From the NCBI GenBank assembly GCA_016861085.1, contig BOKR01000001.1:195271-259270 (forward strand): a DNA stretch of 64,000 nt. The letters are read 5' to 3'. A program made the translations under genes and the position numbers. This document shows positions 9,228-55,418 of this stretch, one piece after another. Below the pieces are notes generated by a model. That model searched no databases. It saw only the letters and a list, made by a program, of their open reading frames with translations, and was not told where the DNA came from. The number at the start of each line of letters is the position of its first letter. Position 1 is the first letter of the stretch. Source of the stretch: Patescibacteria group bacterium (GTDB lineage Bacteria; Patescibacteriota; Microgenomatia; UBA1400; PJMF01).

Positions 9228-9596
9228 ATGTTTATTTTACCAATATTTACAAGAAAACTCCCGTTTGTTTGGGAGTGTTTTCTATTTATTATACTTAAAA
9301 CCTGCTCCCATTACTTTTGGAAGTTAAAAAAGAAGCCGGTAAAGTATATATTTGTGAACATTACTAAACGGGATTATATACCTCATACTGTGACGATGCA
9401 AACGGACTTAGCGTTTGTCATCACTGAAAAATCAGGTATACTTGAAGTGTTATACTCATACGGTTATCCCAAGGGAGCATATACAGTGAAAATAAATATA
9501 ACCAAACTAAAGCAAAGGGCTACTCAATTAGCTCATGAATTAGTAGAAACTGCTCAAGAACAATTGGGTGTCAAGTTTCCCAAATTAAGGACTTTT

Positions 9597-27046: not shown

Positions 27047-27538
27047 TTATAACAAATCTTTCAAATGTGAAATTGCATAGACAGTAATTCCCTCAATAAT
27101 GCTTATTTCAATTTCATTATCTTTAGGGATAACTACTTTAGTACAACCAATTTTTTTAGCGTGAAGTAGTAGCGGTACTATACCTCTTACTTTTTTAATG
27201 CTGCCATCTAACGATAACTCGCCAAAGAACAATGTGTGTGAGATATCATATCCGATTACTGTATAGGCTTTCAGCATTGCGATAGTGATTGCTAAGTCAA
27301 ACCCAGTACCTGACTTTTTTATATCAGCAGGAGCTAAATTAACAACAGTTCTCTTTGCTTTGGGAATTATCCCACAATTAAGTAGTGCAGAAGTAATTCT
27401 CTCTTTTGATTCACTAACAGCTTGTGTTGCTAAACCAATAATAATGAGTTGGGGTTTCCCACGACTCAAATCTACTTCTACTCTGACTGTGGAGGATTCC
27501 AGACCTGAAATGGTGGCGGTGTTTGCGCATGCAAGCAT
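27047..27538 (-). CDS. comM: ComM/YifB N-terminal (Lon-like/ChlI N) domain fragment, 163 aa. It is in frame with 26030..27019 and ends at a TAA at 27047-27049.
   Basis: MLACANTATISGLES..VRVEVDLSRG is the typical YifB N-terminus. Both fragments share one reading frame and are separated by the TAA plus 9 sense codons. Confidence 0.7.
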   Translation of the reverse strand: MLACANTATISGLESSTVRVEVDLSRGKPQLIIIGLATQAVSESKERITSALLNCGIIPKAKRTVVNLAPADIKKSGTGFDLAITIAMLKAYTVIGYDISHTLFFGELSLDGSIKKVRGIVPLLLHAKKIGCTKVVIPKDNEIEISIIEGITVYAISHLKDLL

Positions 27539-30127: not shown

Positions 30128-31159
30128 TTAGATTTTTAATTTTGCTTTCAATCTTAAGAATTTCCAACGAAGTGAGTCACCAATTTTAAATATTTGATAC
30201 AGTGGAAAGTCGACCACATAGTCAAATGTGCCCAAAAACTCTACTAGGTCTCCACCATATCCTTTTTTGAATCGGTGAAACCCAAACCAAGGATCTTTCT
30301 CATTTGGCTCTGGTCCAAGGGATCCCCACATATCAAACAAAGTGCAACCCTGTTGTTTGCCAAACCGAATCATTTCCCACATCATAAGATTGCTAGCCAT
30401 CACGTCACGATGCAGGTCTCGAGAAGCTCCGTATGGATAGTACAGAACTCCATTAAAAATGAACATAATCCATGATGTTAAGATTTCACCCTCATAGACT
30501 GCATTGAAGATCTTGAGCATTCCGGAATTACCAAGTTCTTTCCACATTTTTCTGAAATATTCTGGAGAGTGAGCATAAAATCCTTGACGTTTTGTTGTTT
30601 CTTCAAGAACTGCGATATATTGTTCCATTCCCTCAGCAGAAGTATTTTCAAAAATTTGTACACCTTTTTTGTAGGCTACGTTAACGTTATATCTAGTTTT
30701 ACTTGAGAGATTTTTAAAAAGAATATCTTCCTCTTGGGTTAAATCAAGCTGGAACGTATATTTGGTAAAAAGAGGTTTTCCTGGGACACAGTCGTTATCA
30801 AGTAAAAATTTTGCAATGTTGCTATGTGCAGAGGGAGCTCCTACTTTACTTGCCACATTTGGTTCAAGCTTGATAAAAATAGCGTTGTGTTCTTTGGCAA
30901 CGGTTCTGAGGACCCCGAGTTGATCTGCGTCTGGCATGTAGCCTTTTGGCAAGTATCCGATGTTTTTATTAAGTATTGGGACGGGATGAAACGTGACCTG
31001 TAATGCTTTTACTAATTTCGATTTGTCGAAAATGCCAATTCTTTCAAGTTCAAGTCCGGTAGTCTGGCGAAATTGACCCCATTCCCAAGATTGTAGCGGG
31101 TGGCCAACTGCTGCATTATATGCTTCTTTTTCTTCAGGTCTGATTTTTCGAATAAACAT
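30128..31159 (-). CDS. FemAB-family peptidyltransferase (lipid II aminoacyl-tRNA-dependent cross-bridge formation, FemX/MurM-like)
   Basis: KTRYNVNVAYKKGVQI (FemAB 'KTRYNIRKA' signature), a GNAT-like duplicated fold, and a length typical of the family at 343 aa. Confidence 0.65.
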   Translation of the reverse strand: MFIRKIRPEEKEAYNAAVGHPLQSWEWGQFRQTTGLELERIGIFDKSKLVKALQVTFHPVPILNKNIGYLPKGYMPDADQLGVLRTVAKEHNAIFIKLEPNVASKVGAPSAHSNIAKFLLDNDCVPGKPLFTKYTFQLDLTQEEDILFKNLSSKTRYNVNVAYKKGVQIFENTSAEGMEQYIAVLEETTKRQGFYAHSPEYFRKMWKELGNSGMLKIFNAVYEGEILTSWIMFIFNGVLYYPYGASRDLHRDVMASNLMMWEMIRFGKQQGCTLFDMWGSLGPEPNEKDPWFGFHRFKKGYGGDLVEFLGTFDYVVDFPLYQIFKIGDSLRWKFLRLKAKLKI

Positions 31160-40356: not shown

Positions 40357-40404
40357 AGTTTATTATACAACGAGCGATTTGAATGAGATTTGGAAATAAA
40401 AAAG

Positions 40405-40478
40405 TGGGTGTACATCGACTCGAACGATGGACCTCAGTCTTATCAGGACTGCGCTCTAACCAGCTGAGCTATACACCC
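40405..40478 (-). tRNA. tRNA-Ile (anticodon GAU); CCA not encoded
   Basis: Reverse complement gives GGGTGTA-TA-GCTC-AGCTGGTTA-GAGC-G-CAGTC-CTGATAA-GACTG-AGGTC-CATCG-TTCGAGT-CGATG-TACACCC-A. Confidence 0.85.
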
Positions 40479-40706: not shown

Positions 40707-41273
40707 TTATAAAAACAAGTTAACGTCTGATTGAGTTTCTTCTTGTTTTACTTGCAGCAATCGTTTTTTTTCAGCATTCGAGGTACAGTCACCAGAATCA
40801 TCACAAGTAGTGATATCACTGTAGTATACTTTTGTTTCTGAAGGTGGTAATAATGCAAAGACTTCATACGTGCCTTGGGGAATATCGAGTGTGTAGTCAT
40901 ACTCGTTTTTTATTGAGTCTAGAACAAAATCTACACAAATTTCCTGCTCTGTCCTAACTTCTCGTGCGCATACAATAACTGCTTCTGTTTGAGGTATTTT
41001 TGAGAATCGTATAGTTCCAGAAATTGTTGCAGTTGTAGTTTCACCTAAGACTTCCCCAATCTGTATTACATCGGCAGGAGTTGGTTGTACTGCTATTTGG
41101 GATTCAAGTGCTGCAATCTGTTCTTGCTGTGTCTGAATTTGAGATTCGTACTCTTTTTTTTCTCTATCTGCCTGCCAGATATACACAATTGAAGAAAAAG
41201 TTATCGCAAAGACAAGTACTAAAAAGCTAGCGTTTATTTTTGACATAGCTAGGGCAAGTATATCATACTCCAA
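40707..41273 (-). CDS. Hypothetical membrane-anchored protein
   Basis: 188 aa with an N-terminal TM helix (FLVLVFAITFSSIVYIW), a coiled-coil segment and a Cys-containing C-terminal domain. Confidence 0.35.
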   Translation of the reverse strand: MEYDILALAMSKINASFLVLVFAITFSSIVYIWQADREKKEYESQIQTQQEQIAALESQIAVQPTPADVIQIGEVLGETTTATISGTIRFSKIPQTEAVIVCAREVRTEQEICVDFVLDSIKNEYDYTLDIPQGTYEVFALLPPSETKVYYSDITTCDDSGDCTSNAEKKRLLQVKQEETQSDVNLFL

Positions 41274-41523
41274 GGAAGGCTACTTGGGTTTTTCTAGAAA
41301 TTCTTTGTCCAGGTTGGAACATGTTTCTGAGTGTATTCACAATTGCACCAGCGTGAGCTTCAAGGTTTTGGGTAACTGCTTTGCCAGTTTCGTAGGCTTC
41401 TTCGATCAGTTCACAAAAGGCAAAAAACCCCATGGCGTCTAATAAGGTTACTAAACTCTGGTCTCCCTTGAGTCTTTCGACTTTTTCTAGCAATGCTTGT
41501 AATTTCTCGTTTCCAATTGACAT
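41263..41523 (-). CDS. Hypothetical small protein of 86 aa
   Basis: ORF between the 16S terminator and the next gene. Its stop overlaps the downstream gene's start. Confidence 0.3.
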   Translation of the reverse strand: MSIGNEKLQALLEKVERLKGDQSLVTLLDAMGFFAFCELIEEAYETGKAVTQNLEAHAGAIVNTLRNMFQPGQRISRKTQVAFLGV

Positions 41524-41587: not shown

Positions 41588-41756
41588 CTGTTATTGTGCC
41601 AAGCACAAGGATTTTCAAGTTAAGAATGACAGAATCTGATACAAACATGGTGATAGAGCCGACCTGGATATGGTGGTCTCAGGATTTTGAAAGGTAATTC
41701 GTTTCGTATTGCTACAAAACGGGAATGGGAGGTCGTGATACTCCTACCCATCTCCT

Positions 41757-43240
<1,484 letters not shown>

Positions 43241-43706
43241 AAAAAAAGTTTGAGACTCATTTCTTGCGAAATGAGTTTAGGCTCTTATATTATTATCTAG
43301 ATTTATTTAAAAAATTAACGGATTGTACACATAACATATAAACTATATGTATGTATTTTGTAACATCATCAATAAATTGGGATATTACTGTACAATCCAC
43401 TTAATTATTTAAGTCGAATCTAGTATTTCAGTTCTATCACCATGTTTATTTCAGATATCTGTCATGAAATTTATATTGCTATATATAAATTTCTCTTAAC
43501 TTGTTAATGTTCGATTTGTTTTTCTGTCTATTTCAGGCACAAAAAACACAAGAACGGTAGTATAGTTCTTGTTTTTTATTTTGTAAACTCTCAATATTGT
43601 GAGTTTGTGAAGATGAGTATCTGCCTTGCGGCGGACTTTATCTTTGAAGATTAGTATTGTAACACACTCCAGAAGAAAAAGTCAAAGGGGGAATTTTTAT
43701 TAGGAA

Positions 43707-44744
43707 CTAGATTTCTGGAAACATAACTCGAAGAAATTCTTGAGCAACGTCTTTCTTTTTTCCGACCAATGGGTATTGATTCCAGTCCAAGCTTGGCGAA
43801 GAATTAATTTCAATTATTTTATATGAGTCCCTATTTTGATTAGTAAAAATATTTTTCGACATGAAATCGATACCGCATAATGCTAAGCCAGGTATAGCTC
43901 TAATTGTCTTCAAAGCAATTTTAAGCACGCTTGGGTGGACAGAATCTGTTAAATCAATAGTATCTCCCCCAAGACTAACATTCATGGCACTTTGCGGACG
44001 TAATAAAATTTGTTCATTCTTTTTTGGAATACTTTTTGGAGTCAAATTTTGATTTTTTAGGAAGCTTATGACTTCATCGTCAATAATGAGTTCATGATAT
44101 GTTGGAATGCTTTGCCTGATTGTATTTGTATTTTTCTTCTTGATGAGTTCGTGAATTGTTGATTTCCCATTACCTATAACATTTGCAGCAACTCTTTTGA
44201 TAATACTTAATACCTTTGCTTGAGTTGCTAGAATTCTAAATTCTTCGCCAATGAACATTTCTTCAATCAAAAGGTCAACTGATTTTTCTCCATAATAAGT
44301 TCGAACATTCATAATAGCTTGTTGAAATTTCTCAAAGGAATTCAAGTTTAAATGTACATTATTTCCTCGTTCATCGGAAATTGGTTTAATAACCAGTGGC
44401 TTTTTCATACCATCAAACAACTGCTGATAACATTCAATAGCATCGCCACTTTCAAGCAGAAATCCATGAGTTACCGATATGCCAGCTCGTTGCAACATGT
44501 GTTTGGCTATTCGTTTATCTTTACAGCAATAGTGCGCAAATGCGGTAGTTTCAGAAGGAACTTGTCCATAAAAGTATTTTTCGGTGTTTTTGTATTGTAG
44601 TCTGAACATTGCGGTATATGGAATTATTTCCCAAGAGATTCCCAATTTCTCAGCCTCTTCTATGACAAGAAGCGTGCTCTTACTGATTTTTTTTAGTTTA
44701 TCTTTTCCTAAAATAGTTTTTCTCTTTTGAAATATATCGTTCAT
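43707..44744 (-). CDS. Cyanophycin-synthetase-like ATP-grasp ligase: the CphA G-domain only, with no Mur-ligase domain
   Basis: VIKPISDERGNNVHL, NVIGNGKSTIHELIKKKN (CphA HVIGDGRSTIRELIEKEN), VSLGGDTIDLTDSVHP (CphA LSTGGTAIDRTDEIHP) and IIEINSSP (ATP-grasp Mg site). The protein stops after the grasp domain at 345 aa. Confidence 0.65.
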   Translation of the reverse strand: MNDIFQKRKTILGKDKLKKISKSTLLVIEEAEKLGISWEIIPYTAMFRLQYKNTEKYFYGQVPSETTAFAHYCCKDKRIAKHMLQRAGISVTHGFLLESGDAIECYQQLFDGMKKPLVIKPISDERGNNVHLNLNSFEKFQQAIMNVRTYYGEKSVDLLIEEMFIGEEFRILATQAKVLSIIKRVAANVIGNGKSTIHELIKKKNTNTIRQSIPTYHELIIDDEVISFLKNQNLTPKSIPKKNEQILLRPQSAMNVSLGGDTIDLTDSVHPSVLKIALKTIRAIPGLALCGIDFMSKNIFTNQNRDSYKIIEINSSPSLDWNQYPLVGKKKDVAQEFLRVMFPEI

Positions 44745-44928
44745 ACAAAAAATCCCCCTTAATCCGGCTTAAAAAAGCTACACTGTTTTGAAGTTATAAA
44801 TAACTAAGTATTAACGTGGTATCCACGAGAATTGGGAAAAATTATCCCATAACAGAGGTTCATTGTATCACAAATGGTCTGTATTAGCCAATTTTTCTGC
44901 TATATGTTGGATTGGTTTGAGTCGGGAT

Positions 44929-46053
44929 CTAGGAGATTACACCTCCACCCAAACAAATAAATTCATCATTTATTTTTTTATAAAATACGGCAGATTGGCC
45001 TTGTGCAATTCCTTTAGTTGGCTTTGTCAGCGTTACTGTACTTGCAGTTTTAATGTCATCTTTTACTTTGATTTTGCACTTCAATAAATCGCCAGTATGG
45101 CGGATCCTTACAAATAAATTAGTGCTATTTAAGGCCAATTTATCGTTGTTATTAACAATCCAATGCATATCTCTGACATCAAAAGTGTCTGTCAAAGTTT
45201 CATGACCAAAACCAACCACGAGCTGATTTTTTTCTGGATTTTTTCGAATAACATAAAATGGTGGAATATTGTGCTTATCTATTGTAGTTCCATCGTCCAT
45301 TTTAATGACGGTTTTTGCATTGATTTGGAAGCCGTTTCTTTGGCCTACAGTATAAAACCACAAGCCTTTGTGTGTACCAATGACATTTCCAGCGGTATCA
45401 ACAACCGCACCAGGGTTTTCGCCCAATCGTTCTTTCAAAAAATTATGCACATTAATATCGCCAATAAAACAAATTCCAACAGAATCTTTTTTATTGCTTA
45501 CATGGAGCTTGCGCTTCTCTGCTTCTGTTCTGACTTCTGACTTAAGCATGTTTTGAAGCGGAAACAATGTGTGGTCAATTTGGCCCTCGTTCAACAAATA
45601 TAAAAAGTACGTCTGATCTTTATGGGCATCTTTTGGAATTGCAAGTTGTTTGATAGTAGTGCCATCTTCAGTTTCATTCTCACTAATTTTGGCATAGTGA
45701 CCTGTTGCCACAAAATCAAAACCTTCCTTCATTGCCCAATCATAAAACATGCCGAATTTAATTTCTTTGTTGCACATTACATCTGGATTTGGAGTTCTGC
45801 CAGCTTCATATTCTGTAAAAAAATATTCCACAACTTTGTCACGGTACTCTTGTTTGAAATCTAAAACTTTGAATGGGATACCAAGATCAAGGGCGACTTT
45901 GAGTGCGTCTTTACGATCTTCTTCACTACGGCACCCTGGGGCACGCCAACACTCAAGGTATACTCCGGTAACAGCATATCCTTGTTCGAGTAGTAAGTGG
46001 GCGCAGACTGAAGAATCAACTCCGCCACTCATGCCAAGTGCTACTTTTTTCAT
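44929..46053 (-). CDS. mnmA: tRNA 2-thiouridine(34) synthase MnmA
   Basis: PP-loop ALGMSGGVDSSV, catalytic Cys region, and VATGHYA. I took the start at the ATG 46051-46053. Confidence 0.9.
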   Translation of the reverse strand: MKKVALGMSGGVDSSVCAHLLLEQGYAVTGVYLECWRAPGCRSEEDRKDALKVALDLGIPFKVLDFKQEYRDKVVEYFFTEYEAGRTPNPDVMCNKEIKFGMFYDWAMKEGFDFVATGHYAKISENETEDGTTIKQLAIPKDAHKDQTYFLYLLNEGQIDHTLFPLQNMLKSEVRTEAEKRKLHVSNKKDSVGICFIGDINVHNFLKERLGENPGAVVDTAGNVIGTHKGLWFYTVGQRNGFQINAKTVIKMDDGTTIDKHNIPPFYVIRKNPEKNQLVVGFGHETLTDTFDVRDMHWIVNNNDKLALNSTNLFVRIRHTGDLLKCKIKVKDDIKTASTVTLTKPTKGIAQGQSAVFYKKINDEFICLGGGVIS

Positions 46054-46063
46054 AAGTCCTATA

Positions 46064-46825
46064 TTATAGCAGATTTTGACAGTCTTTTTGACTGAATTGG
46101 CCATTTTTTGTTCGAGTAATAGAATATGTAGTTGCGGGAATATCGAGAACTTTGCTCAAGTCTCTCACGAAAGCTCGAACATACGTTCTGGTTGAAACTT
46201 CAATGTGTAGCGTGATAAATGGTAGTTGGGATATATTCTTTTTTTTCAGTGTTCTGAAAGTTTCCCCCCATTGTTCAGTGATTTTTTGTTGTCTGAAATC
46301 TCCTGAAACAAGTTGAATCCTATCAAAGATATTATTTTGCAAGACTGTTATATCAACAGAATCTACTTTTTTACAATCAATTGAAAAAATAGTGACCCTG
46401 TTTTTTTTCTGTTCAAACGTTTCACCTTTTTTTGCTAGGTCAAATCCTGATTTTCCTTTCACACGTTGTGCAGAAAAATTCGGCTGTATTTGTATTTGTG
46501 CACCTAAAAAATTTTGCAAGAGCGTTTTTAGTTTTTCACCAATTTCTACTTCGTTGAGAGGTTGTTTAGTGAGATCTTTCGTTATACCTAAGAGGTCTAA
46601 ACTATCAGTACTAACTCCAAATAGGATTTCAAAAGTATATGTTTTTTTTGCATCCTTAAACTCACCTTTTTTAAATCTATCATCACCAGTTAGTACTACT
46701 ACAATACCCTCTGCCATAGGGTCCAGAGTACCAGTATGAGTAGCCTTTTGGTGAATTTTTTCCCCAACTTTTTGTGCTAATAAATGTGTTGATTCGCCAA
46801 CTTTTTTCCAAATAGGAATAATCAT
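46064..46825 (-). CDS. truB: tRNA pseudouridine(55) synthase TruB
   Basis: Catalytic motif HTGTLDPMAEGIVVVLTG and TruB-family length. Confidence 0.85.
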   Translation of the reverse strand: MIIPIWKKVGESTHLLAQKVGEKIHQKATHTGTLDPMAEGIVVVLTGDDRFKKGEFKDAKKTYTFEILFGVSTDSLDLLGITKDLTKQPLNEVEIGEKLKTLLQNFLGAQIQIQPNFSAQRVKGKSGFDLAKKGETFEQKKNRVTIFSIDCKKVDSVDITVLQNNIFDRIQLVSGDFRQQKITEQWGETFRTLKKKNISQLPFITLHIEVSTRTYVRAFVRDLSKVLDIPATTYSITRTKNGQFSQKDCQNLL

Positions 46826-46858: not shown

Positions 46859-47713
46859 ATGAAAATATTAATTCTAACTACAGATACTGGAGCCACGCAT
46901 ACTGGCACCAGTGTTAGTTCGAGTACGGGTTTACTTCTTGACAGTTTGAAAAAAAATCACGAAGTGACACTCGCACTTTTTTCACAACTCTCACTGACGA
47001 TTGCAAAAGACAGCATACACATTGCGTACAAATCAACAGACATAAAATTGTTTGATTTCATTATTTTCAGATCAACAGATGATACTGAATTTAATATGGA
47101 ATGGTTGGCACAGATTGTTGGCGACTACTGTCTGGCAAATAACATAAAAAATATTAATGCTCAACATTATGCTTCTTTTGGTAATAGATGGAATAAATTG
47201 CAGCAAATCGAATTTTTTACTAGAAATGGTTTTTTAGTTCCTCACACCAAGTTCGGATACATTGAAAACTCACACTTTCCGCTCATTGCCAAGCCTTTAA
47301 TAGGAAGCCAAGGCAAAGGCATTCATATGGTAGCTTCAAAGAAAGAGCTAGTTCCACATTTAGGTACAATATATCAAGAGGTGCTTCCAAATAGACAAGA
47401 TTATAGAGTTCTTGTTTTGGGAGAAAAAATTCTTGGAGTTATGCTTAGAAAAGCCAATACTAATTCAGTAGTGAGTAATATCTCTGCAGGTGGAATAGGA
47501 GAAAAATCTGTAATTGACCCTCAGTTACAAGAAATCTCACTTCGTCTTGCACGGCTAAGCCGGCTCGATTTCTGTGGCATAGATCTAATGAAAAATAAGG
47601 ATGATGAATATGCTGTTCTGGAAGTCAATAGAAATCCAGGTTTTTTGGGATTTCAGAAAGTGACGGGTATTGAGGTTACTGCAGAAATTGAGGCACACTT
47701 ATCTGCATCGTGA
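46859..47713 (+). CDS. rimK: RimK-like ATP-grasp alpha-L-glutamate ligase (paralog A)
   Basis: IAKPLIGSQGKGIHMV, YRVLVLGEKILGVMLR, and the EVNRNPGFLGFQKVTG Mg-binding region. Confidence 0.75.
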   Translation: MKILILTTDTGATHTGTSVSSSTGLLLDSLKKNHEVTLALFSQLSLTIAKDSIHIAYKSTDIKLFDFIIFRSTDDTEFNMEWLAQIVGDYCLANNIKNINAQHYASFGNRWNKLQQIEFFTRNGFLVPHTKFGYIENSHFPLIAKPLIGSQGKGIHMVASKKELVPHLGTIYQEVLPNRQDYRVLVLGEKILGVMLRKANTNSVVSNISAGGIGEKSVIDPQLQEISLRLARLSRLDFCGIDLMKNKDDEYAVLEVNRNPGFLGFQKVTGIEVTAEIEAHLSAS

Positions 47714-48568
47714 AATGAGATACTCAATTATTTTGAGTGGAATGTCAATTCCCGTTGCTTGCATGAAGCCATTAAACTGAGGGGCTCTGTTCACCTCCAT
47801 AACCATGAGTTTTCCATTCATATCTTTGATTAAGTCAACACCTGCTATTTCATATTGCATGCTCTGTGCTGCAGCAAGAGTAAGGTTTTTTTCTTCATCT
47901 GAGAGATTGTATATTTCTGCCGAACCTCCCAGTGATACATTATTTCTAAATTCAGATTCATCTTGGCGGTATCTTTTGATTGCTCCTTGAATTGTATTCC
48001 CGATAACAAACACACGAATATCACCCTCATTGTCAACAAATTTTTGGATTATCAAAGATTGGTTTTCACTCTCAAACACATCAAGCAATTCATCAAGGGA
48101 ATGACACTTATATACACCTTCACCTTTTGAACCATCAGTGACTTTTGCGATAACAGGATACGTAATTTTTTCTTTGATCATCTCAAATGATTTTTTTGAT
48201 ACAAAATAGCTATCGATGATTGGAATATTATTCTGTCTCAGCCTCTGGTATTCAAAGCTTTTTCGATCAATCCATGGTCTGTTATGACAAAAGACGCTGT
48301 CAATAACTGGAATAGAATGTGATAAACAAAATTCTGAAATGAGAGCTTCTTCTTCGATGTATGGTCCAACAGTTCTAAAGAAAACGATATCAAAATCAAG
48401 TATGTTGTGTTCACCGATATACAACTCATGATTTTGCTGGGAGTATTTTATTAGTAATTCATCAAGTTTTTTGATAACAAGTTCCACTCCTAATTTTTTT
48501 GCAGCTTCAGTAAAAAGTGGCTCATGCAAGTATTGTGTTTTTTTAACTAAAAAAAGAATTTTTTTCAT
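47699..48568 (-). CDS. rimK: RimK-like ATP-grasp alpha-L-glutamate ligase (paralog B, convergent with paralog A with a 15-nt overlap of their 3' ends)
   Basis: PVIAKVTDGSKGEGVYK, DIRVFVIGN, EVNRAPQFNGFMQATGIDIP. Confidence 0.75.
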   Translation of the reverse strand: MKKILFLVKKTQYLHEPLFTEAAKKLGVELVIKKLDELLIKYSQQNHELYIGEHNILDFDIVFFRTVGPYIEEEALISEFCLSHSIPVIDSVFCHNRPWIDRKSFEYQRLRQNNIPIIDSYFVSKKSFEMIKEKITYPVIAKVTDGSKGEGVYKCHSLDELLDVFESENQSLIIQKFVDNEGDIRVFVIGNTIQGAIKRYRQDESEFRNNVSLGGSAEIYNLSDEEKNLTLAAAQSMQYEIAGVDLIKDMNGKLMVMEVNRAPQFNGFMQATGIDIPLKIIEYLISRCR

Positions 48569-48584
48569 AGATTCTTATATACTA

Positions 48585-49541
48585 TTATAGTTCGTTGTAG
48601 TCTCCTATTTTTTTAATTTCTTGTGCGTATTTTTCTTTGCTCAGTGAAAGGAAACTGGGTAGTTGAGGGTGAAACTTGGGGTTGAGTAAGATAGCTTTTT
48701 CTACGTCTTCTAGAGCCAGTTTTCCAAAATACAAATTTGTGCTGTCAAAATTATTTTTTTTCAGCCACCCATAAACGTCTATAAGTCCTTCAAAATAAAC
48801 TAGGTCCTTAGTATAGCCTCCAGGTTTACTGGTGTCAGTAAGTCCCCTTTTTTTCTTGAGTGCCATTAGCCAGCGTCGTTCTGGATTTTGGATATATGTT
48901 CCAAGGAAATTCCAAATTTCAACAAACGATGCATGCTGTGCTTTGGATACTGTTATGTAGTCAAGAGCAGACCAATAAGCAAACTTAAAGCTACGAGGCA
49001 TAAGAAAATGTAGTGTTGCTAATCCTTCTTCTGTTTTTAAGTAATCTGAGAACCCATATTTTTTTTTGCTTTTGAACCACGGTTGTTTTTCGTAGTTAAT
49101 TCTTCGTAATGCGTGTGTACCAACTTCGTGATACAGCATGCCCAGTAATCCTTCTTTTCTAAAATCAGGTGGGAGTCTCAATTTTATAGTATCAGCTGTA
49201 ATGCTTGTTCTTGAAACGAATGATGAGGACCATACAATTTTGAATCGTTTTTGCAAATTATGCATATGCAAAAATGTATAAATTGTTTTTTCAATATCAC
49301 GCTGTGAAACAACTGGACCTTCCATTTTTTGCAGGTCATCTTCTGTTTTGCCAAAGTATGCTTTTTCAACAATATTTTCTGCTATTTTGAGATATGCATT
49401 TGTAGTTGGTCCATATTTTTCTAATTTGTTTTGGTCAATTGATTCTGCATATCTAAATTGTGGATTGTAGGTTTGGTCGGCAAAAAACTTTTCTTTTTCT
49501 TGGTTGAGATTTTTAGGAATAAGTGAGGTTACAAAAGACAT
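48585..49541 (-). CDS. DUF1704 / MATCAP-family putative metallopeptidase ('QEGLA-motif' protein)
   Basis: Atypical HExxxH zinc motif (YHEVGTH) and the TEEGLATL equivalent of the QEGLA signature. Confidence 0.6.
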   Translation of the reverse strand: MSFVTSLIPKNLNQEKEKFFADQTYNPQFRYAESIDQNKLEKYGPTTNAYLKIAENIVEKAYFGKTEDDLQKMEGPVVSQRDIEKTIYTFLHMHNLQKRFKIVWSSSFVSRTSITADTIKLRLPPDFRKEGLLGMLYHEVGTHALRRINYEKQPWFKSKKKYGFSDYLKTEEGLATLHFLMPRSFKFAYWSALDYITVSKAQHASFVEIWNFLGTYIQNPERRWLMALKKKRGLTDTSKPGGYTKDLVYFEGLIDVYGWLKKNNFDSTNLYFGKLALEDVEKAILLNPKFHPQLPSFLSLSKEKYAQEIKKIGDYNEL

Positions 49542-49547
49542 AGATTT

Positions 49548-50837
49548 TTATTCTATTTCGTCGTCGCCAACAAGAAATCCCTGAAGATCTTTTCGGCCCA
49601 ACTCAATTTTGTGTTTTAATTTATTTAATTTCTTCACAACAATCATCGCGGTTGTAATCTTTTTATCTTTGATTTTTATCTTAACTTCAATAACTGGTAC
49701 TTTGCCCTCAATGATTTCTTGTTGTCTCCATAACAAATCATCAATGTCAAATAACCCAAGGTCATGAGCAAATTTTTCACTAATCGCACTGCGATATCTA
49801 CCTGTATTGACTAAAGTTTCAGACTCGTGTTCCTTATTATTTTCGTCATAGACTATAATAGTTGGTTGGGTTGAGATAACTTGTACTCCTGCATCAATTT
49901 TTATTTGATCTGAAAAATTATGTGTAAATAAAGCCTGAGCAACTTTTACCCCATGTTTTGGACTGGTAATTTCCAAGCCCTCTACTCGCTCAATTCTTCG
50001 TTTTAACCCTGCTCTATTACAAATTTGAATAGAAAGCCCCGGGAAACCGTTCAGTTCTACGATCATGGGACCTTTTTCAGGGTGAATAAAAATATCAGCT
50101 CCCATAAACTTATATCCAGCCACACTGGCTGCTTTCACAGCGGTTTCAAGTACCCTATTCCAGTGTGGGATTTTGATCCCAGAGACTTTTTTTTTGGTTC
50201 CTGGAAAATGTGTAATTCGCTCTTTTTTTCCTTTGACAGCATAGGTTGTCAATCCTGTTGCAATGTCTATTCCAAGGCCAATAGCTCCCTGGTCTAGGTT
50301 AGCTTTGCCTTCTGACTCTTTGGTTGGAATACGAGCCATGGCCATAACTGGGACAGAGTTAAACACGACGACTCGAATGTCAGGCGTCCCTTTGTATGAA
50401 TATTTGCTTAGGTCTGGATGAGCTGGTATTTTTTCTTCTAAAATTGCTTTGTGTGCGCTGCCCCAAGTGCTAAACTCGCCATCAAGGATGTTGTTAACAT
50501 GGAGGTTTAGGTCATCTTCAGAAATAGTTGCCCCTGTAGACAGTTTCCACTGTGCTTTGTTTGTCAGTTTTTTTGTGACTACCCAAATTCCTTTACCCGC
50601 ACTGCCGCTGGCAGGTTTCAAAACGAACGGAACAGGAATAATTTCCCAATTAATATTGTCTATATCTTGCAATGTTTCAAAGACATGAAACACTTGTGCT
50701 GTTGCTATATTATTCTCGATAAGCAACTCTTTTGTTTTGAGTTTAGAAAAACCATAGTTTTTGGCTTTGATAGAGTTCAATTTGGTGTACTGATACCTGG
50801 CGTTCATGCCAAGGATATGAGATGGTTTAACTGACAT
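49548..50837 (-). CDS. Fusion of a RimK-related ATP-grasp ligase (alpha-L-glutamate ligase-like) with a C-terminal retropepsin-like 'ATP-dependent Zn protease' (PF05618-like) domain
   Basis: The ATP-grasp carries LKPASGSAGKGIWVV, DIRVVVFNSVPVMAMARIP and IVELNGFPGLS. The C-terminal approx. 100 aa align to the RimK-associated retropepsin-like domain (..LVNTGRYRSAIS.. versus family ..DTGAxTSxL..; C-terminal ELGRKDLQGFLVGDDE versus LLGRxAL.GxFLVDP). Confidence 0.6.
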   Translation of the reverse strand: MSVKPSHILGMNARYQYTKLNSIKAKNYGFSKLKTKELLIENNIATAQVFHVFETLQDIDNINWEIIPVPFVLKPASGSAGKGIWVVTKKLTNKAQWKLSTGATISEDDLNLHVNNILDGEFSTWGSAHKAILEEKIPAHPDLSKYSYKGTPDIRVVVFNSVPVMAMARIPTKESEGKANLDQGAIGLGIDIATGLTTYAVKGKKERITHFPGTKKKVSGIKIPHWNRVLETAVKAASVAGYKFMGADIFIHPEKGPMIVELNGFPGLSIQICNRAGLKRRIERVEGLEITSPKHGVKVAQALFTHNFSDQIKIDAGVQVISTQPTIIVYDENNKEHESETLVNTGRYRSAISEKFAHDLGLFDIDDLLWRQQEIIEGKVPVIEVKIKIKDKKITTAMIVVKKLNKLKHKIELGRKDLQGFLVGDDEIE

Positions 50838-50842
50838 GGACG

Positions 50843-51802
50843 TTATTCTTCCTCTTCAATTAAAGACCTAAAACGTAATCGCTCGCTGATTCTTAAACCG
50901 ACGAACTTTCCAATCAAAATGTTAATAAAGCCTGAAAAGAACATAAGAAGTTCTGGTTCTGATAATGCAAATTGCTGGAGTGGCTCCCATTTTAGTAAGA
51001 ACCCAGAAACCACAGCCAAAGCAATTGTTTCAATTGTCAACGCAAGTGCTTCACTCTGCTTAGTCCTTGCTTGAGCATCTAAGAAGTTTTCTGCCAAAAG
51101 GATCAAAATTAAAATTGGGAATATATTGACACTTAATAAAGTGTTTAGTTTCACAAATGGTGCTACGACCAATGTGACAAAAATACCGATAGAAACTATC
51201 CAAAGTAGTAACGCAGTTCGGGGGAGATATGAAATTTTCGCAAGTTTAAGGAAGCGTTTTGCAATTAAAGCAGCAATGGCAATCACAAAGAAAATTAACA
51301 AGCCTTCAATAACACCTGTTGAGACAAGTGCAACCGAAAGAACAGCAGGAATGTAAATTCCAAAACCTCTCAGACCAATAATGTGTCTAGATGCGGCAAT
51401 AAAAGATGCAATCAATGGGAACAAGAGCAACAACACAAGCACGTTCACTGGTAAACCATTAGCAACAGCTTGTCTAATAGCATGTTGCAAAAAATTATTC
51501 CAATTTAACTTTTCTGGAGGGTTTTCATCAAGATATGCCTCAAGCCTACTTTTTTGTTTACCTCCAGTTTCGGTAATGTCTTGATCTTTTTTTTCTTGGA
51601 TTTTTTCAACGATTTCGGCAGAAGGAGTGGCTAATCTAGCGCTATCAGTGGCTTCCCCTGCTTGTGTAGCGACAGAAGTGGTGTCTATCACAATTTCTGC
51701 ATCTTCTAGGGTCACTGCGTAAGAAATTTTTGGGTTGAGAACTAGCGCAAAGGAAGTAAAGAACGCAAAAAAAACTACTACTGCTAATTGGCTGATCTTC
51801 AT
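50843..51802 (-). CDS. Seven-TM membrane protein, a 7TM_transglut-like module without a transglutaminase domain
   Basis: N-terminal signal/TM, an approx. 90-aa extracytoplasmic segment, then seven hydrophobic helices. It lies immediately upstream of the ATP-grasp/retropepsin gene with a 5-nt gap. I preferred the start at the ATG 51800-51802. Confidence 0.5.
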   Translation of the reverse strand: MKISQLAVVVFFAFFTSFALVLNPKISYAVTLEDAEIVIDTTSVATQAGEATDSARLATPSAEIVEKIQEKKDQDITETGGKQKSRLEAYLDENPPEKLNWNNFLQHAIRQAVANGLPVNVLVLLLLFPLIASFIAASRHIIGLRGFGIYIPAVLSVALVSTGVIEGLLIFFVIAIAALIAKRFLKLAKISYLPRTALLLWIVSIGIFVTLVVAPFVKLNTLLSVNIFPILILILLAENFLDAQARTKQSEALALTIETIALAVVSGFLLKWEPLQQFALSEPELLMFFSGFINILIGKFVGLRISERLRFRSLIEEEE

Positions 51803-51821
51803 AGGTATATTATACCTTACA

Positions 51822-52217
51822 TCACAAAATCTTGCTGATAATGGAATGGACGAAGCCAAGTAAAATCGATACAAATACAAGTGACCAAAATTGAGACAAT
51901 TGTGTGCCAAATACTATCATTTCTTGAATATGAAATCCTGGGACTAAATAGGTGGCTAGCCAAAGGAGAAAAATATTGATTATTCCAGAGAATAATCCAA
52001 GTGTGATTATATTTATAGGAAGAAATAGTAATTTGAGTACTGGTCTGACCAATGAATATAGGATTGTGAGAACGATACTTGCAATTATTAAGGTTGCCAA
52101 ACTGGTGAAACCAACAGTAGGCAACGCCCAAGCCAGGACACCTAATGTAAAAGCTGTTATTAGTATTGCTCGCAACATATTACTATGTAGTATAGCAAAT
52201 TGTGAAACGCTACTCAA
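51822..52217 (-). CDS. DUF360 (phage holin 4_2-like) small 4-TM membrane protein
   Basis: VRPVLKLLFLPINIITLGLFSGIINIFLLWLAT matches the DUF360 core (RPxL..LxLP...LTLGLF..V.NA). Confidence 0.5.
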   Translation of the reverse strand: MSSVSQFAILHSNMLRAILITAFTLGVLAWALPTVGFTSLATLIIASIVLTILYSLVRPVLKLLFLPINIITLGLFSGIINIFLLWLATYLVPGFHIQEMIVFGTQLSQFWSLVFVSILLGFVHSIISKIL

Positions 52218-53655
52218 ACATTGCTGTTAACCGCTTTTTCTTGTGTTGCTTTTGTGCAAAGCGATGTGACTCATCTCTAATCTGCTGAATTAGTTTTAGT
52301 GTTGGATGACTTGAATCAAGTTTAACGAGGTGGTATTTAAGGTTACTTATTTTTCTACCATGTTCCACTTGTGTTTCGTAATATGGCAAGACTAGCCTAT
52401 CTGGATTCTTAGCGATCCCGATTACAGGTACGTACCATTTCCATAGTTTCAAAACTGATTTTACTTGTCCTTTACCACCGTCAATCAAGACTAAATTTGG
52501 AGTCCCCCACTCTGGGTGGTTTTGTCTTCTAACGATTGCTTCTTGCAACATATGAAAATCATTTGGCGTATTAAGCGTTTTAATGTTAAAAATGCGGTAT
52601 TGGTCTGTGTCTGGTTGTCCATTAGTAAAGGTAACCAACGAAACAGCTGGATTTGTACCTTGGATGTTGCTGACGTCGTAACCTTCTATTCTAGTAAGTG
52701 GCATTTGCTTTGGAAGGCCTAAATATTGGGAAAGAATTTTTTGTAAGTAAATAACGCCATCCTCACTAATTTGTTCTTTGAGTGCTGCAGTTGTGAGTTC
52801 AGGCTTTAGTTTGTGTTGCTTGCTGGTAACTTCTGCAATCAATTTAAGTTGATCTCGCACAACTGCAGCCTCCTCATAATTTTGGGTTTCGATTGCTTGC
52901 CCCATTTTTTGTTGCAGTGAGTCGGTAACTAACTTTTTTTTACCTCTCAAAAAATGAATTAAATTTTGAATATTTTCGTTATATTTTCCTGGGGAAATCT
53001 CACCAATACAGGCACCTGGACACAAATCTAAGTGGTAATAAAAGCATGGTTGATTATCCTTGTTTCTTCTATTTTCGTGTGCTAGTTTTTTATTGCACCA
53101 AGGAAAAATTTTTCGAGCAATGTTCAAGACTTCATTTGTTTTATAGGCACTGGGAAATGGTCCAAGGACTGTTGTCCCATTTCGTTGTTTTTTTTGTAAC
53201 TCTTTTTTTCTAACTTTTAATACCCTAGGATAAACTTCATCGGTAATTTCTATGTATAGTGGACTCTTGTCGTCTTTTAAAAGTGTGTTGTATTCTGGTT
53301 GGTAGGTTCGAATCAGTTCAGCTTCAACCAACAATGCTTGTAGTTCACTTTCAAGTACTTTGTGTTTGACGGTTTGAGCGAGTGAAACCATCTGTTTTAT
53401 TTTGCTTGTTAGCAGTGGATATTTGGCGTACGAACTAACTCTGTTCTTGAGTTTCTTGGCTTTTCCGACGTATAAGACTTGAGAGTTTTGGCCGATAAAC
53501 CAATACACTCCCGGTGACAAGGGTAATGATGATAAAGCCGACTCCCAAATAAAGGTAGGTTTCTTGTTTTTGGAGGGCGGTAATGAGCTGTGGTCCGCTG
53601 ACGATTTGTTGTTGGGCTGGTTCATAAAGTGCTTCTCCAGTGTTTTTCCATACAT
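52210..53655 (-). CDS. uvrC: Excinuclease ABC subunit C, a short form without the C-terminal (HhH)2 domain
   Basis: GIY-YIG (PGVYWFIGQNSQVLYVGKAKKLKNRVSSY), UvrBC-interaction region, and RNase H-like endonuclease domain. The true start is uncertain: the ATG-defined N-terminus overlaps the upstream gene by about 220 nt, and a TTG at 53518-53520 just before the GIY-YIG domain is an alternative. Confidence 0.8.
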   Translation of the reverse strand: MYGKTLEKHFMNQPNNKSSADHSSLPPSKNKKPTFIWESALSSLPLSPGVYWFIGQNSQVLYVGKAKKLKNRVSSYAKYPLLTSKIKQMVSLAQTVKHKVLESELQALLVEAELIRTYQPEYNTLLKDDKSPLYIEITDEVYPRVLKVRKKELQKKQRNGTTVLGPFPSAYKTNEVLNIARKIFPWCNKKLAHENRRNKDNQPCFYYHLDLCPGACIGEISPGKYNENIQNLIHFLRGKKKLVTDSLQQKMGQAIETQNYEEAAVVRDQLKLIAEVTSKQHKLKPELTTAALKEQISEDGVIYLQKILSQYLGLPKQMPLTRIEGYDVSNIQGTNPAVSLVTFTNGQPDTDQYRIFNIKTLNTPNDFHMLQEAIVRRQNHPEWGTPNLVLIDGGKGQVKSVLKLWKWYVPVIGIAKNPDRLVLPYYETQVEHGRKISNLKYHLVKLDSSHPTLKLIQQIRDESHRFAQKQHKKKRLTAMFE

Positions 53656-55378
53656 AGTTTACCGTGATTTCGCTTCTTTTTGGAACTGACAAACCTTTTG
53701 TGAAGAACGTTGCTGAAAAGGTTTTTGTTTGATATGGCAATAATACTGCTAAAGTACTATTTTCTCCCAGTGCTACATCTATTTCAGGATCCTGCGCTAT
53801 AATCTGTGGTTGTATATCATACCAGGCCTGTCCAGTGTCGTTACTAATTGAAATAGTGAACATGCCCGGAATAGGAATAAAAAAGAATTTTTTTTGCTCA
53901 ACTTTTGTTGAAATTGCTGGGCCGATATTTGGGAACGGTTCGTCACTAATAGTGACGTCTACGTCTTTCGTTTCCTCTTGTGAAAGTGCTTTATAGCTTC
54001 CTGCTGGGTTGGGAAGGGTGCTGGAATTACCATTAATTGCAAACACAATATGGTTGAGATCAAATAGGTTGAAGTAGTCTACTCCTCCAGTGGTGTTTCC
54101 CCATGTGGGATCAATAGGAATCCAACGATTCTGTTGCTGATCAAAATATTCTGGCCAAGAATGTAGGATATCACCTGCAAAACTGAGTGGTCGTAGGATT
54201 GAGTTTTCTGAGTACGCATACCCTACTAATCTTCGAGCGGGTATATTTGCTGCTCTGGCAATCGCAATAAAGCTATCTGTGAATTCTTGACAGACCGCAT
54301 CTTCACTGTTCTTAAATGCGTCGACAGCTCCATAGCGAGTTAGTGTCTCTAGAGTGATTTCCCTTCTAGAGTACTGTAGGGTATCAACTACATGATCATA
54401 TATAGATTCAGCGGTTGGAAACGACTGTGCTTTTTCTTTGATTATTGAGTTATTACTCTCCCAGTATTTATCATTTTGGGTATGATTTTTTTGCACCGGG
54501 ACTCCTGGAACGATTATATTTGGTTCAAGGGTTACTTGGGCTACTGCTGTTAAATGTACTACAGTTACAGATGAAGCAGGAATTTTATATGAGGCGATCC
54601 AATTCCCATCGGCATCTTGTTTTATTTCTTCAGGAAGTGGATCAAGATCATGGTAGTGGAGCTTTTGATATTGTGTGTCTGGCGGTAAGGCAATTTGTGC
54701 AATAGCTGGACTACTAGAGGGATTTTCTAGGTGATATCTTAGTGTCATTTTGTAATTTTGTTCCGTGCCAAAGATTGCTGAAATTGGTTCACCTTTTGGG
54801 AGGTCAAATACAATTTTGGCTTCAGTCTGAACAAACTCTGACGAGGTTGGGGTTGGGGTAACCCTAACGGGAAGCGAGAAAAAAACTGGAGTGTAGAGAA
54901 TTGTTCTATTTGAATCGAATGTATTTTCATCTCCAAGTTGAGGAATATGGACTTCTAGAACTCTTCCGGCTACTAAAGCCACATCTGGATTTGAGTACTC
55001 AATAGTGAAATCTCTGACTTTTCCTTGGCCAACAACTTCATCTTCAAAAGTAATTCCAATACTTGTCCCACTTTCGTTACTGACAATGTTTGCTGGAATC
55101 TCTTTTGACCCCGATTTTACTATGATATTTTGCAAGCCAAAATAAGTTGTCTTTAGCGCATATTGTTTAAGATAAATAGTTGGTGTTTTATTGGTTATTC
55201 GTATATGGTGAGAAACGAACGTATTGCCATCTCTTGAAACTCTATATGTCGTTTCAATGGTTGTATTAAAATTTTCTTTTGCAGTATTTTCTTGTGCCAA
55301 AACAGATGAAGCGCTAAAAGGTAGCGTCAAAAAGAACAAGAAAAAAACAGTAAAAATACCACGTAATAATTGACGCAT
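53435..55378 (-). CDS. Secreted/membrane-anchored transglutaminase-like cysteine protease (TGc) with a large N-terminal beta-rich domain
   Basis: Signal peptide, a TGc core with Cys (VCQEFTD), His (LHSWPEY) and Asp (IPIDPT) in canonical order and spacing, and a C-terminal TM helix with a basic tail. Confidence 0.65.
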   Translation of the reverse strand: MRQLLRGIFTVFFLFFLTLPFSASSVLAQENTAKENFNTTIETTYRVSRDGNTFVSHHIRITNKTPTIYLKQYALKTTYFGLQNIIVKSGSKEIPANIVSNESGTSIGITFEDEVVGQGKVRDFTIEYSNPDVALVAGRVLEVHIPQLGDENTFDSNRTILYTPVFFSLPVRVTPTPTSSEFVQTEAKIVFDLPKGEPISAIFGTEQNYKMTLRYHLENPSSSPAIAQIALPPDTQYQKLHYHDLDPLPEEIKQDADGNWIASYKIPASSVTVVHLTAVAQVTLEPNIIVPGVPVQKNHTQNDKYWESNNSIIKEKAQSFPTAESIYDHVVDTLQYSRREITLETLTRYGAVDAFKNSEDAVCQEFTDSFIAIARAANIPARRLVGYAYSENSILRPLSFAGDILHSWPEYFDQQQNRWIPIDPTWGNTTGGVDYFNLFDLNHIVFAINGNSSTLPNPAGSYKALSQEETKDVDVTISDEPFPNIGPAISTKVEQKKFFFIPIPGMFTISISNDTGQAWYDIQPQIIAQDPEIDVALGENSTLAVLLPYQTKTFSATFFTKGLSVPKRSEITVNYVWKNTGEALYEPAQQQIVSGPQLITALQKQETYLYLGVGFIIITLVTGSVLVYRPKLSSLIRRKSQETQEQS

Positions 55379-55418
55379 GCTTTTATTGTAACTGCTTTGT
55401 TAAGAAATTGGCAGACCG

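Follow-up and report, generated by a model that had tools for sequence, protein, structure and literature searches.

A stand-alone ligase of the CphA-G/GshF ATP-grasp type in Patescibacteria, with conserved catalytic residues and a replaced specificity pocket

The stretch of DNA analysed here (hereafter the window) comprises 64,000 nucleotides of low G+C content from contig BOKR01000001.1 of a Patescibacteria group bacterium, and the element in question is a minus-strand gene encoding a 345-amino acid (aa) ATP-grasp protein. An initial annotation, made from the sequence alone, had described the product as a stand-alone relative of the ATP-grasp (G) domain of cyanophycin synthetase (CphA), quoting two motifs, both of which are present in the product of the open reading frame (ORF). 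An identical protein (P0001) is on record from the Patescibacteria metagenome-assembled genome (MAG) BroJett025, and the G+C content of the window, its 16S rRNA gene lacking a 23S partner and its gene content fit a genome of this kind. The gene, its local signals, its internal landmarks and the adjoining rRNA gene are as follows:

43707-44744, minus strand: ATG-initiated ORF, the gene for a 345-aa stand-alone G-type (CphA-G/GshF-type) ATP-grasp ligase of the 'SDW' orthogroup
44753-44760, minus strand: Shine-Dalgarno-like AAGGGGGA, 8 nt 5' of the ATG, by direct reading of the sequence
44862-44891, minus strand: promoter-like (sigma-70-like) site TTGGCT-18-TACAAT with TG, by consensus scan, in the 184-bp gap between mnmA and the ligase gene
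44142-44174, minus strand: motif GNGKSTIHELI, residues 191-201, aligned to TeCphA1 330-340
43932-43973, minus strand: motif LGGDTIDLTDSVHP, residues 258-271, at and after the G-omega 'large loop' (TeCphA1 389-399)
43779-43793, minus strand: S318-L-D320-W321-N322 loop, the orthogroup signature, which by alignment replaces CphA1 G456-F-R458-M-H460
41760-43245, minus strand: 16S rRNA gene, directly 3' of the ligase gene (Rfam RF00177, 1432 bits)

The top NCBIfam match of the protein was TIGR02068 (cyanophycin synthetase; E 1.1e-64, 218.9 bits), in which residues 16-344 align with positions 153-473 of the 862-position profile. This segment corresponds to the CphA G domain only, and the score lies below the curated whole-protein cutoff of 850 bits. 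The second match, NF002688 (GshAB; E 1.1e-54, 186 bits against a cutoff of 425), spans the whole C-terminal ATP-grasp half of GshAB (profile 430-755 of 756), and the third, TIGR03103 (N-acetylglutaminylglutamine amide (NAGGN) synthetase; 2.4e-36, 125.4 bits against a cutoff of 569), covers residues 19-344 (profile 239-543). The D-alanine-D-alanine ligase (Ddl) profile NF002378 matched a fragment only (residues 72-184, 4.8e-10), while Pfam returned only a generic RimK-type ATP-grasp at 26.1 bits (cutoff 21). Among sequences of the Protein Data Bank (PDB), phmmer retrieved CphA1 (7wac, 8.7e-35; 7lg5, 2.4e-32) and GshF (3ln7, 1.9e-31), with Ddl at 0.92; matches to CphA2 (7ta5, 8fxh) were restricted to the G domains of those proteins (query 80-342). 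Aligned to TeCphA1, residues 20-343 of the ligase correspond to residues 163-481.

An AlphaFold2 model built from 24 family members reached a mean predicted local distance difference test (pLDDT) score of 92.9 and a predicted template modelling score (pTM) of 0.88. Foldseek comparison of this model with the PDB gave TeCphA1 7wae at 4.7e-28 (template modelling (TM) score 0.76), CphA2 7ta5 at 9.6e-28 and GshF 3ln6 at 3.4e-27, the last with the highest TM score (0.80). Ddl, RimK and LysX followed at ~1e-11 or weaker, some 16 orders of magnitude behind, with TM scores of 0.40-0.47 for Ddl. All 50 Foldseek matches listed are ATP-grasp enzymes, which establishes the fold. The G-type module proposed by the initial annotation is therefore borne out by both the TIGR02068 profile (1.1e-64) and the 7wae fold match (4.7e-28). 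The same annotation had allowed that Ddl or another non-CphA family might prove the best match; this is not what was found (Ddl 5e-10, CphA 1e-64), and a Ddl identity is ruled out by the profile scores (4.8e-10 against 1.1e-64) as well as by the fold scores (~1e-11 against 4.7e-28).

The two motifs are less specific than they first appear. GNGKSTIHELI agrees with its TeCphA1 counterpart, GNGKSTIAELI, at 10 of 11 aligned positions and forms part of a stretch inserted relative to plain ATP-grasp enzymes, with G191, G193 and L200 conserved in all groups compared. The aligned counterparts of LGGDTIDLTDSVHP are STGGIAVDRTDEIHPE in TeCphA1 and STGGDSIDMTDEMHES in PmGshF, and G259 and G260 are universal among the groups compared. 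The second motif and most of the first are common to the GshF ATP-grasp module, so that they mark the CphA-G/GshF module type rather than CphA specifically; the 'motif-for-motif' likeness to CphA held as regards the presence of both motifs, but not as regards their exclusivity.

The limits of the protein coincide with those of the module. It begins 16-20 residues ahead of the start of the CphA1 G domain (CphA1 residue ~163) and ends where the CphA1 M domain would begin, and it has no M domain, no gamma-glutamylcysteine synthetase (gamma-GCS) domain and no ~160-residue CphA N domain, the last absence being one that the initial annotation had not remarked upon. Its C-terminus (...MFPEI) coincides with the natural C-terminus of GshF (...MLFPEL, to residue 756 of 757), and in the family the C-terminus reads MFPEI/L. 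Downstream, there is only a 460-bp spacer followed by the 16S rRNA gene, and there is hence no split-off M-domain ORF. Moreover, no Mur-ligase-like, Peptidase_S51 (cyanophycinase) or GshA-like/gamma-GCS product was found among the ORFs of at least 150 aa in the 64-kb window, nor any cyanophycinase or isoaspartyl dipeptidase partner gene in the window. The earlier statements that the protein ends after the grasp fold without an M domain (profile 153-473 of 862, 345 aa) and that it cannot be a canonical CphA1 were both correct, since it stands alone and lacks the N-G-M architecture.

Approximately 60 full-length homologs are on record (35-58% identity, 335-399 aa), from Woesebacteria, Pacebacteria, Jacksonbacteria, Parcubacteria and other Patescibacteria. 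Given these homologs and the identical protein, the match is far beyond chance. A truncated CphA or CphA pseudogene was ruled out by the conserved family length, the GshF-like C-terminus, the pLDDT of 92.9 and the adjoining rRNA gene. The source names of the homologs disagree ('cyanophycin synthetase', 'D-alanine-D-alanine ligase-like', 'glutamate--cysteine ligase', 'hypothetical'), and the inconsistency of the names given by the Joint Genome Institute (JGI) suggests automatic transfer from partial matches. Only two of ten outgroup proteins carry a source name at all: a JGI 'cyanophycin synthetase' and a hypothetical protein of a Pacebacteria MAG.

Active-site residues were mapped through a gap-free local alignment of the ligase onto TeCphA1, not from the coordinates of the model, and the roles of the residues were taken from the substrate complex and mutants of TeCphA1 (PMC9427784). 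The conserved positions are as follows:

TeCphA1 K220, ligase K77: ATP phosphates; conserved
TeCphA1 K261, ligase K120: ATP phosphates; conserved
TeCphA1 E300, ligase E161: universally conserved
TeCphA1 R309, ligase R170: acyl-phosphate and oxyanion; conserved
TeCphA1 R323, ligase R184: near the gamma-phosphate, in CphA1 binding the Asp beta-carboxylate; conserved
TeCphA1 D431 and E450, ligase D293 and E312: Mg2+ ligands; conserved
TeCphA1 N452, ligase N314: universally conserved

K77, K120, E161, R170, D293, E312 and N314 are conserved at no less than 80-90% in all three comparison groups, and R184 is invariant in the family alignment (A1). The phosphate-binding lysines, the Mg2+-binding acidic/Asn triad and the acyl-phosphate arginine expected of an ATP-grasp enzyme are all in place. 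The residues by which CphA1 recognises its substrates present a different picture:

TeCphA1 E215 (binds the primer Arg side chain), ligase Y72: mostly Y in orthologs
TeCphA1 H267 (essential P-loop His), ligase R126: mostly Q in orthologs
TeCphA1 G456 (oxyanion), ligase S318: S in 95% of orthologs
TeCphA1 R458 (binds the alpha-carboxylate of the incoming Asp), ligase D320: D in all orthologs
TeCphA1 N394 (binds the beta-carboxylate of the incoming Asp), ligase N255: mostly D in orthologs

Of the recognition set E215, H267, N394, S396, G456 and R458, only N394 and the Asp-site residue S396 (S257 in the ligase) are matched, and mutagenesis of TeCphA1 has shown that E215, H267, G456 and R458 each matter (PMC9427784). 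GshF carries Leu, Tyr/Phe and Met/Tyr at the positions of E215, H267 and R458, and the ligase pocket, with Y72, R/Q126 and D320, agrees with neither enzyme. Neither the ligation of Asp, which the initial annotation had entertained, nor the use of a cyanophycin-type primer finds support, since four of the residues concerned (E215, H267, G456 and R458) are replaced; an Arg-like or other basic residue, on the other hand, might be added.

N129, S180, T215, T262, L289, S318, W321 and N322 are conserved in the orthogroup and rare elsewhere, S318, W321 and N322 being shared by at least 92% of the orthogroup but seldom seen outside it (at most 12% in the other groups). These residues cluster in the 318-322 loop and beside the P-loop and the G-omega loop, the region in which CphA1 holds the incoming amino acid. 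The orthogroup-specific pocket is thus predicted to consist of Y72, Q/R126, D/N255, S318, D320, W321 and N322. Because the site of CphA1 Arg458 is acidic and aromatic in the ligase, the nucleophile may be cationic, for example a basic amino acid or an amine, which D/N255, D320 and W321 might accommodate, although we attach low confidence to this assignment.

To place the protein among its relatives, 1.84 billion cluster representatives were searched with a profile, which brought up 4,995 proteins of this module type in all (E<1e-30). The best 150 of these 4,995 are either stand-alone (316-384 aa) or long, with two or three tandem copies of the module; the long proteins often carry an additional acylphosphatase domain and sometimes TPR, LPG_synthase_C or MmgE/PrpD. 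Multi-module proteins with two or three tandem CphA-G/GshF-type modules, all encoded outside the window (P0083-P0099, P0105, P0113, P0131 and others), reach 2,393 aa and may represent ATP-grasp 'assembly lines'. A neighbour-joining (NJ) tree, a rough distance method, was computed from 296 domain copies drawn from the 150 best profile matches plus earlier ones. In this tree, the window ligase falls in a group of about 37 stand-alone cluster representatives of 341-360 aa from across Patescibacteria, whose shared signature, Y-Q/R-D/N-S-S-D-W, gives the 'SDW' orthogroup its name. This orthogroup forms part of a larger clade that takes in about 137 of the 296 copies, almost all of them stand-alone and with very diverse pocket signatures, while PmGshF and three CphA1 G domains fall outside the stand-alone clade. 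Bootstrapping (100 replicates, 78-80 taxa) recovered in 100 of 100 replicates a split with the window ligase and at least 80% of the solo proteins on one side and the three CphA1 references on the other; the ligase probably branches outside GshF as well. The label 'CphA-like' is too narrow, given that GshF is nearly as close (186 against 219 bits; TM 0.80) and that the tree position is outside CphA1. Within the literature collection searched, no description of stand-alone G-type ligases was found, the relevant papers being limited to CphA1 and CphA2.

These data bear directly on whether the protein could be a minimal cyanophycin-type polymerase, in which the G domain alone polymerises Asp or beta-Asp-Arg, as in CphA2. 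We regard this as very improbable. While CphA1 and CphA2 supply the top profile and fold matches, and N394 and S396 of the Asp site are kept as N255 and S257, the four residues probed by mutagenesis (PMC9427784) have become Y, R/Q, S and D, and there is no N domain, which CphA1 requires for tethering and CphA2 for stability. Furthermore, 219 bits are far under the 850 that TIGR02068 demands, the tree separates the protein from the CphA1 clade in every bootstrap replicate, and the window holds no Peptidase_S51 (cyanophycinase) gene.

It is similarly extremely unlikely, in our view, that the protein is a stand-alone GshF-type glutathione or thiol tripeptide synthetase adding Gly to gamma-Glu-Cys, as some of the JGI 'glutamate--cysteine ligase' labels imply. 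Neither a gamma-GCS domain nor a gamma-GCS gene occurs in the window, the NF002688 score of 186 bits is below the cutoff of 425, and the P-loop Tyr/Phe, Leu (position 215) and Met/Tyr (position 458) of GshF are replaced by R/Q, Y and D, respectively; the JGI names, moreover, are inconsistent among family members. Against this stand the match to NF002688 over the whole ATP-grasp half (1.1e-54), the best TM score of all (3ln6, 0.80), the coinciding C-terminus and a tree separation from GshF found in only 67 of 100 replicates.

The observations comprise the fold and the limits of the domain, the conservation of the catalytic and the replacement of the specificity residues, the phylogenetic distance from CphA1 and the gene contexts described below; on this basis, we consider it likely that the gene encodes a functional, free-standing carboxylate-amine ligase of the CphA-G/GshF type, with substrates unlike those of CphA1 and GshF, and probably acting independently. 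Its substrates are taken to differ on account of the replaced recognition residues, which serve the Arg-decorated primer and the incoming Asp in CphA1 and the incoming Gly in GshF. Activity, acyl-phosphate chemistry and the types of donor and nucleophile are proposed by analogy. As in CphA, GshF and Ngg (the NAGGN synthetase), the ligase would bind Mg-ATP and phosphorylate the carboxylate of an acyl donor to an acyl-phosphate, which R170 would stabilise; an amine would then attack the acyl-phosphate to form an amide bond. CphA1 and CphA2 extend the alpha-carboxylate of a C-terminal Asp; in GshF the group extended is the Cys carboxylate of gamma-Glu-Cys, and in Ngg it is the alpha-carboxylate of the N-blocked amino acid N-acetyl-Gln. 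The donor would most likely be a short or N-blocked peptide or amino acid that reacts through its C-terminal alpha-carboxylate, and the acceptor, judged by the replaced pocket, would be neither Asp nor Gly and is possibly cationic.

The gene has its own Shine-Dalgarno-like sequence and a promoter-like site, which we count in favour of an independent role, albeit that the consensus scan found 11 promoter-like sites in the region where 7.7 were expected, which makes such a site weak evidence. Upstream of it lie two tRNA modification genes, followed by a cluster resembling the rlo operon of Pseudomonas aeruginosa, all identified by Pfam, with NCBIfam in addition for the five genes of the cluster:

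44929-46104, minus strand: mnmA, tRNA modification, between the ligase gene and the Rlo-like cluster
46064-46825, minus strand: truB, tRNA modification, between the ligase gene and the Rlo-like cluster
46859-47713, plus strand: RimK-like ligase
47699-48568, minus strand: RimK-family ligase
48585-49541, minus strand: MATCAP/DUF1704/QEGLA metallopeptidase
49548-50837, minus strand: ATPgrasp_ST/TIGR02291 (PF14397) RloC-like ligase
50843-51910, minus strand: 7TM_transglut (PF14402, NF052267) RloB-like membrane protein

The ligase gene is thus about 3 kb from the Rlo-like cluster (46859-51910) and on the same strand, with truB and mnmA in between, and its membership in the cluster is uncertain. Genetic evidence links the P. 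aeruginosa rlo operon to osmotic tolerance, antibiotic resistance and cell shape (PMC12239564). The RloB match of the 7TM_transglut protein is limited to its 7TM part. The C-terminal 130 aa of the ATPgrasp_ST protein (49551-49940, minus strand) show only a faint retropepsin-like match (gag-asp_proteas, E 0.04), and the counterpart at a related locus (L028; 466 aa) has a clear PF05618 RimB-like domain; in the window, an RloA/RimB-type protease, possibly degenerate, may be fused to the ATPgrasp_ST ligase. The presence of several ATP-grasp ligases beside a homolog of tubulin tyrosine carboxypeptidase suggests a bacterial 'add and trim' system acting on C-terminal tails, and the literature collection searched yielded no description of an association between bacterial MATCAP (DUF1704) and ATP-grasp enzymes. 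A role in anti-phage defence was considered and set aside, as PADLOC gave no match for the ligase gene or its six neighbours.

We next ask whether the ligase belongs functionally with this cluster. In such a scheme, it would be a working part of the neighbouring Rlo-like system: the ATPgrasp_ST and RimK-type ligases would build a peptide or C-terminal tail, to which the ligase would append one particular residue, and the product would be trimmed by the MATCAP-like carboxypeptidase and handled by the 7TM protein. The search for related loci used an alignment (A2) biased towards SDW-type genes, and most cluster examples were retrieved through the ligase itself, an ascertainment bias that counts against the scheme. 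Within 6-10 kb of the gene, none of the 10 other non-redundant SDW loci (L001, L003, L004, L009, L011-L016) has a 7TM, ATPgrasp_ST or MATCAP gene. An all-versus-all comparison of flanking ORFs across 11 loci gave housekeeping synteny among related lineages only, which ruled out a conserved partner gene beside SDW orthologs: the block FtsH-exonuclease-enolase-DHH-gene-SecA is common to four related genomes, and a DEAD-box helicase recurs at variable distance in four others.

The paralogs of the ligase tell a different story. G-type paralogs lie inside Rlo-like clusters at six of 11 non-SDW loci (L006, L007, L019, L026, L027, L028) and also at L030, a close relative of the window and the one locus found by a metagenome scan with the neighbouring ATPgrasp_ST gene, that is, independently of the ligase. 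Such clusters may hold several copies (three in L007, two in L019 and three in L027), and mnmA adjoins or lies near the paralogs in L006, L007, L019, L026 and L027. At L028, where a GNAT gene is added, the cluster stands in other chromosomal surroundings, and this different setting favours a functional link over simple synteny; L029 has three tandem G-type copies without a 7TM gene, and no Rlo-like cluster was found at the non-SDW loci L017, L018, L020 and L021. The window cluster lacks a G-type paralog of its own. Directly after MATCAP, where the window has a RimK-type gene, L030 has a G-type paralog with a CphA-like G..R.M pocket, and paralogs in this position share the pocket x-[H/Q/A]-N-S-G-R-M (L007 6171-7154, L019 7250-8233, L027 6999-7991, L030 8893-9870). 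By virtue of its CphA-like Gly and Arg, this post-MATCAP paralog is the best candidate for a ligase adding an acidic amino acid. The pockets of cluster-embedded paralogs (xHNSGRM, KHNMEDM, xHNSMSM and others) include SDW in none of the cases seen.

Linkage of the paralogs, the proximity and shared strand of the gene and the lack of a G-type paralog in the window cluster, where a RimK-type gene fills the slot, therefore speak for participation of the ligase in the Rlo-like system, whereas the ten unlinked SDW loci, the intervening truB and mnmA, the promoter-like site and the distinct pocket speak against it; on balance, we judge participation unlikely, if worth keeping in mind. The suggestion of the initial annotation that neighbouring ligases might supply a primer fares no better, being weakly favoured by the paralogs embedded in such clusters but not by the ten loci of its own orthogroup. 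Rather, SDW enzymes are normally encoded alone and probably act independently. On the simplest reading, G-type ligases would have diversified by tandem duplication at an ancestral cluster locus, from which the SDW branch would later have become independent in most lineages, remaining in this genome at the edge of the ancestral block.

Synteny common to the window, L007 and L027 extends beyond the cluster, from UvrA, Transglut_core, UvrC and holin_4_2 through 7TM and onwards to mnmA. In the window (52210-58385), UvrA, a 647-aa Transglut_core protein, UvrC and a Phage_holin_4_2-like membrane protein directly precede the 7TM/ATP-grasp cluster; within the fetched ranges, this block is seen from Transglut_core onwards in L007 and from UvrA onwards in L027. 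As the Transglut_core ORF (53435-55378) overlaps the listed UvrC ORF (52210-53655) by ~220 nt, the true UvrC start is probably further downstream.

The predicted pocket also invites a further alternative, namely a cell-wall precursor ligase that attaches an amino acid to, or through, a basic residue of the peptidoglycan stem peptide. Its model is Aslfm of Enterococcus, an ATP-grasp D-aspartate ligase. An acidic and aromatic acceptor pocket would suit the amine of Lys, Orn or diaminopimelate (DAP), and the gene is retained across very small Patescibacteria genomes. The genome itself makes peptidoglycan, and envelope and morphology phenotypes are described for P. aeruginosa rlo mutants (PMC12239564). 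Nevertheless, no linkage to mur, fem or ddl genes was seen in any locus examined and no Aslfm-like protein appears among the sequence and fold matches listed, so that we give this alternative only an extremely small chance. The peptidoglycan genes of the window encode a class A penicillin-binding protein (PBP1; 9228-12239), the undecaprenyl-diphosphatase BacA (25274-26041) and a FemAB-family transferase (30128-31159). From these genes it follows that the organism builds a wall, probably one with a tRNA-dependent cross-bridge.

Several points weigh against the preferred reading of an independent ligase with altered substrates. The tree is a rough distance tree, in which only the separation from CphA1 is solid and the remaining topology provisional: the split that also excludes GshF has the modest support noted above, and monophyly of the core SDW group was recovered in only 47 of 100 replicates. 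The proposed cationic nucleophile derives solely from alignment to TeCphA1, and Asp at position 320 is not peculiar to the orthogroup, being frequent in further solo subfamilies as well. Finally, no more than 3 kb separates the gene from a cluster of several ligases whose counterparts in other genomes include paralogs, and an independent role in this genome is consequently not certain.

A broader picture may nonetheless be sketched, which we offer as a distinctly speculative and improbable one. Patescibacteria would possess a ribosome-independent line for peptide assembly and trimming, in which RloC-like, RimK-type and several G-type ligases differing in their acceptor pockets work alongside a MATCAP-like carboxypeptidase and an RloB-like 7TM protein. 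Attachment of a basic residue or an amine would fall to the SDW enzyme, which in most lineages would have moved out of the operon and taken on a general housekeeping role, modifying a protein C-terminus or an envelope component. In formal terms, such a line would resemble the tubulin ligation/detyrosination cycle and the synthesis of stem peptides by Mur ligases.

Some further features of the window deserve mention. No 23S or 5S rRNA gene was found in the 64 kb, and two hypothetical ORFs (41263-41523 and 40707-41273) separate the 16S rRNA gene from a tRNA-Ile-GAT gene (40404-40478). The listed plus-strand ORF 41725-42111 is spurious, as it lies inside the 16S rRNA gene. A ComM/YifB-type Mg-chelatase-like ATPase is distributed over two adjacent minus-strand ORFs, a ChlI/Lon-like N-part (27047-27538) and an Mg_chelatase plus C-part (26030-27019), which could reflect a frameshift, a sequencing error or a genuine split.

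To our knowledge, the CphA-G/GshF module is known from three enzyme types only, all of them multidomain. The same module is found here as a free-standing enzyme in a large radiation that is concentrated in reduced Patescibacteria genomes and has diversified its acceptor pockets. The class of enzyme and its chemistry are familiar; the family is large and misannotated, and 'cyanophycin synthetase', 'glutamate--cysteine ligase' and 'Ddl-like' are all unjustified as names for stand-alone G-type proteins. Its substrates, if found, could reveal a peptide or tail modification important to organisms with very small genomes, and would widen the range of specificities offered by ATP-grasp peptide ligases. 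Furthermore, the link between the paralogs and the MATCAP/Rlo-like operons provides an entry point into rlo chemistry, which is relevant to stress tolerance in Pseudomonas.

Compared with known systems, the ligase differs in architecture, score cutoffs and specificity residues from CphA1, CphA2, GshF and Ngg, and Ddl is its best match by neither profile nor fold. With the G domains of CphA1 (7wac/7wae, 7lg5) and CphA2 (7ta5, 8fxh) it shares the ATP-grasp module, including the GNGKSTIxELI insertion and the G-omega loop NxSxGG, at 21-27% identity and TM scores of 0.71-0.77 in the Foldseek alignments of the PDB chains. K220, K261, E300, R309, R323, D431, E450 and N452 of CphA1 are identical in the ligase; the N and M domains, in contrast, are missing, and E215, H267, G456 and R458 are exchanged for Y, R/Q, S and D. 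CphA2 consists of N, G and a truncated M domain, whereas the ligase has nothing before or after the G module. GshF (3ln6, 3ln7) has in common with it the hybrid ATP-grasp fold (TM 0.74-0.80) and a coinciding C-terminal end with nothing beyond the grasp fold, but the N-terminal gamma-glutamylcysteine ligase domain is absent from the ligase and the P-loop Tyr/Phe, Leu and Met/Tyr pocket is not kept. The ATP-grasp half of NAGGN synthetase (TIGR03103) matches ligase residues 19-344; unlike that enzyme, the ligase has no fused GNAT, and a separate GNAT gene accompanies the paralogs only in L028. As for the RloABC and RimK-RimB systems (PMC12239564), the window cluster contains RloB-like and RloC-like genes and the ligase paralogs are embedded in such Patescibacteria clusters, yet the ligase has the G-type insertion and is hence neither RloC-like nor RimK-like. 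Relative to the three-gene rloABC operon as described there, the clusters of Patescibacteria are enlarged by a MATCAP/DUF1704 peptidase and by several further ligases.

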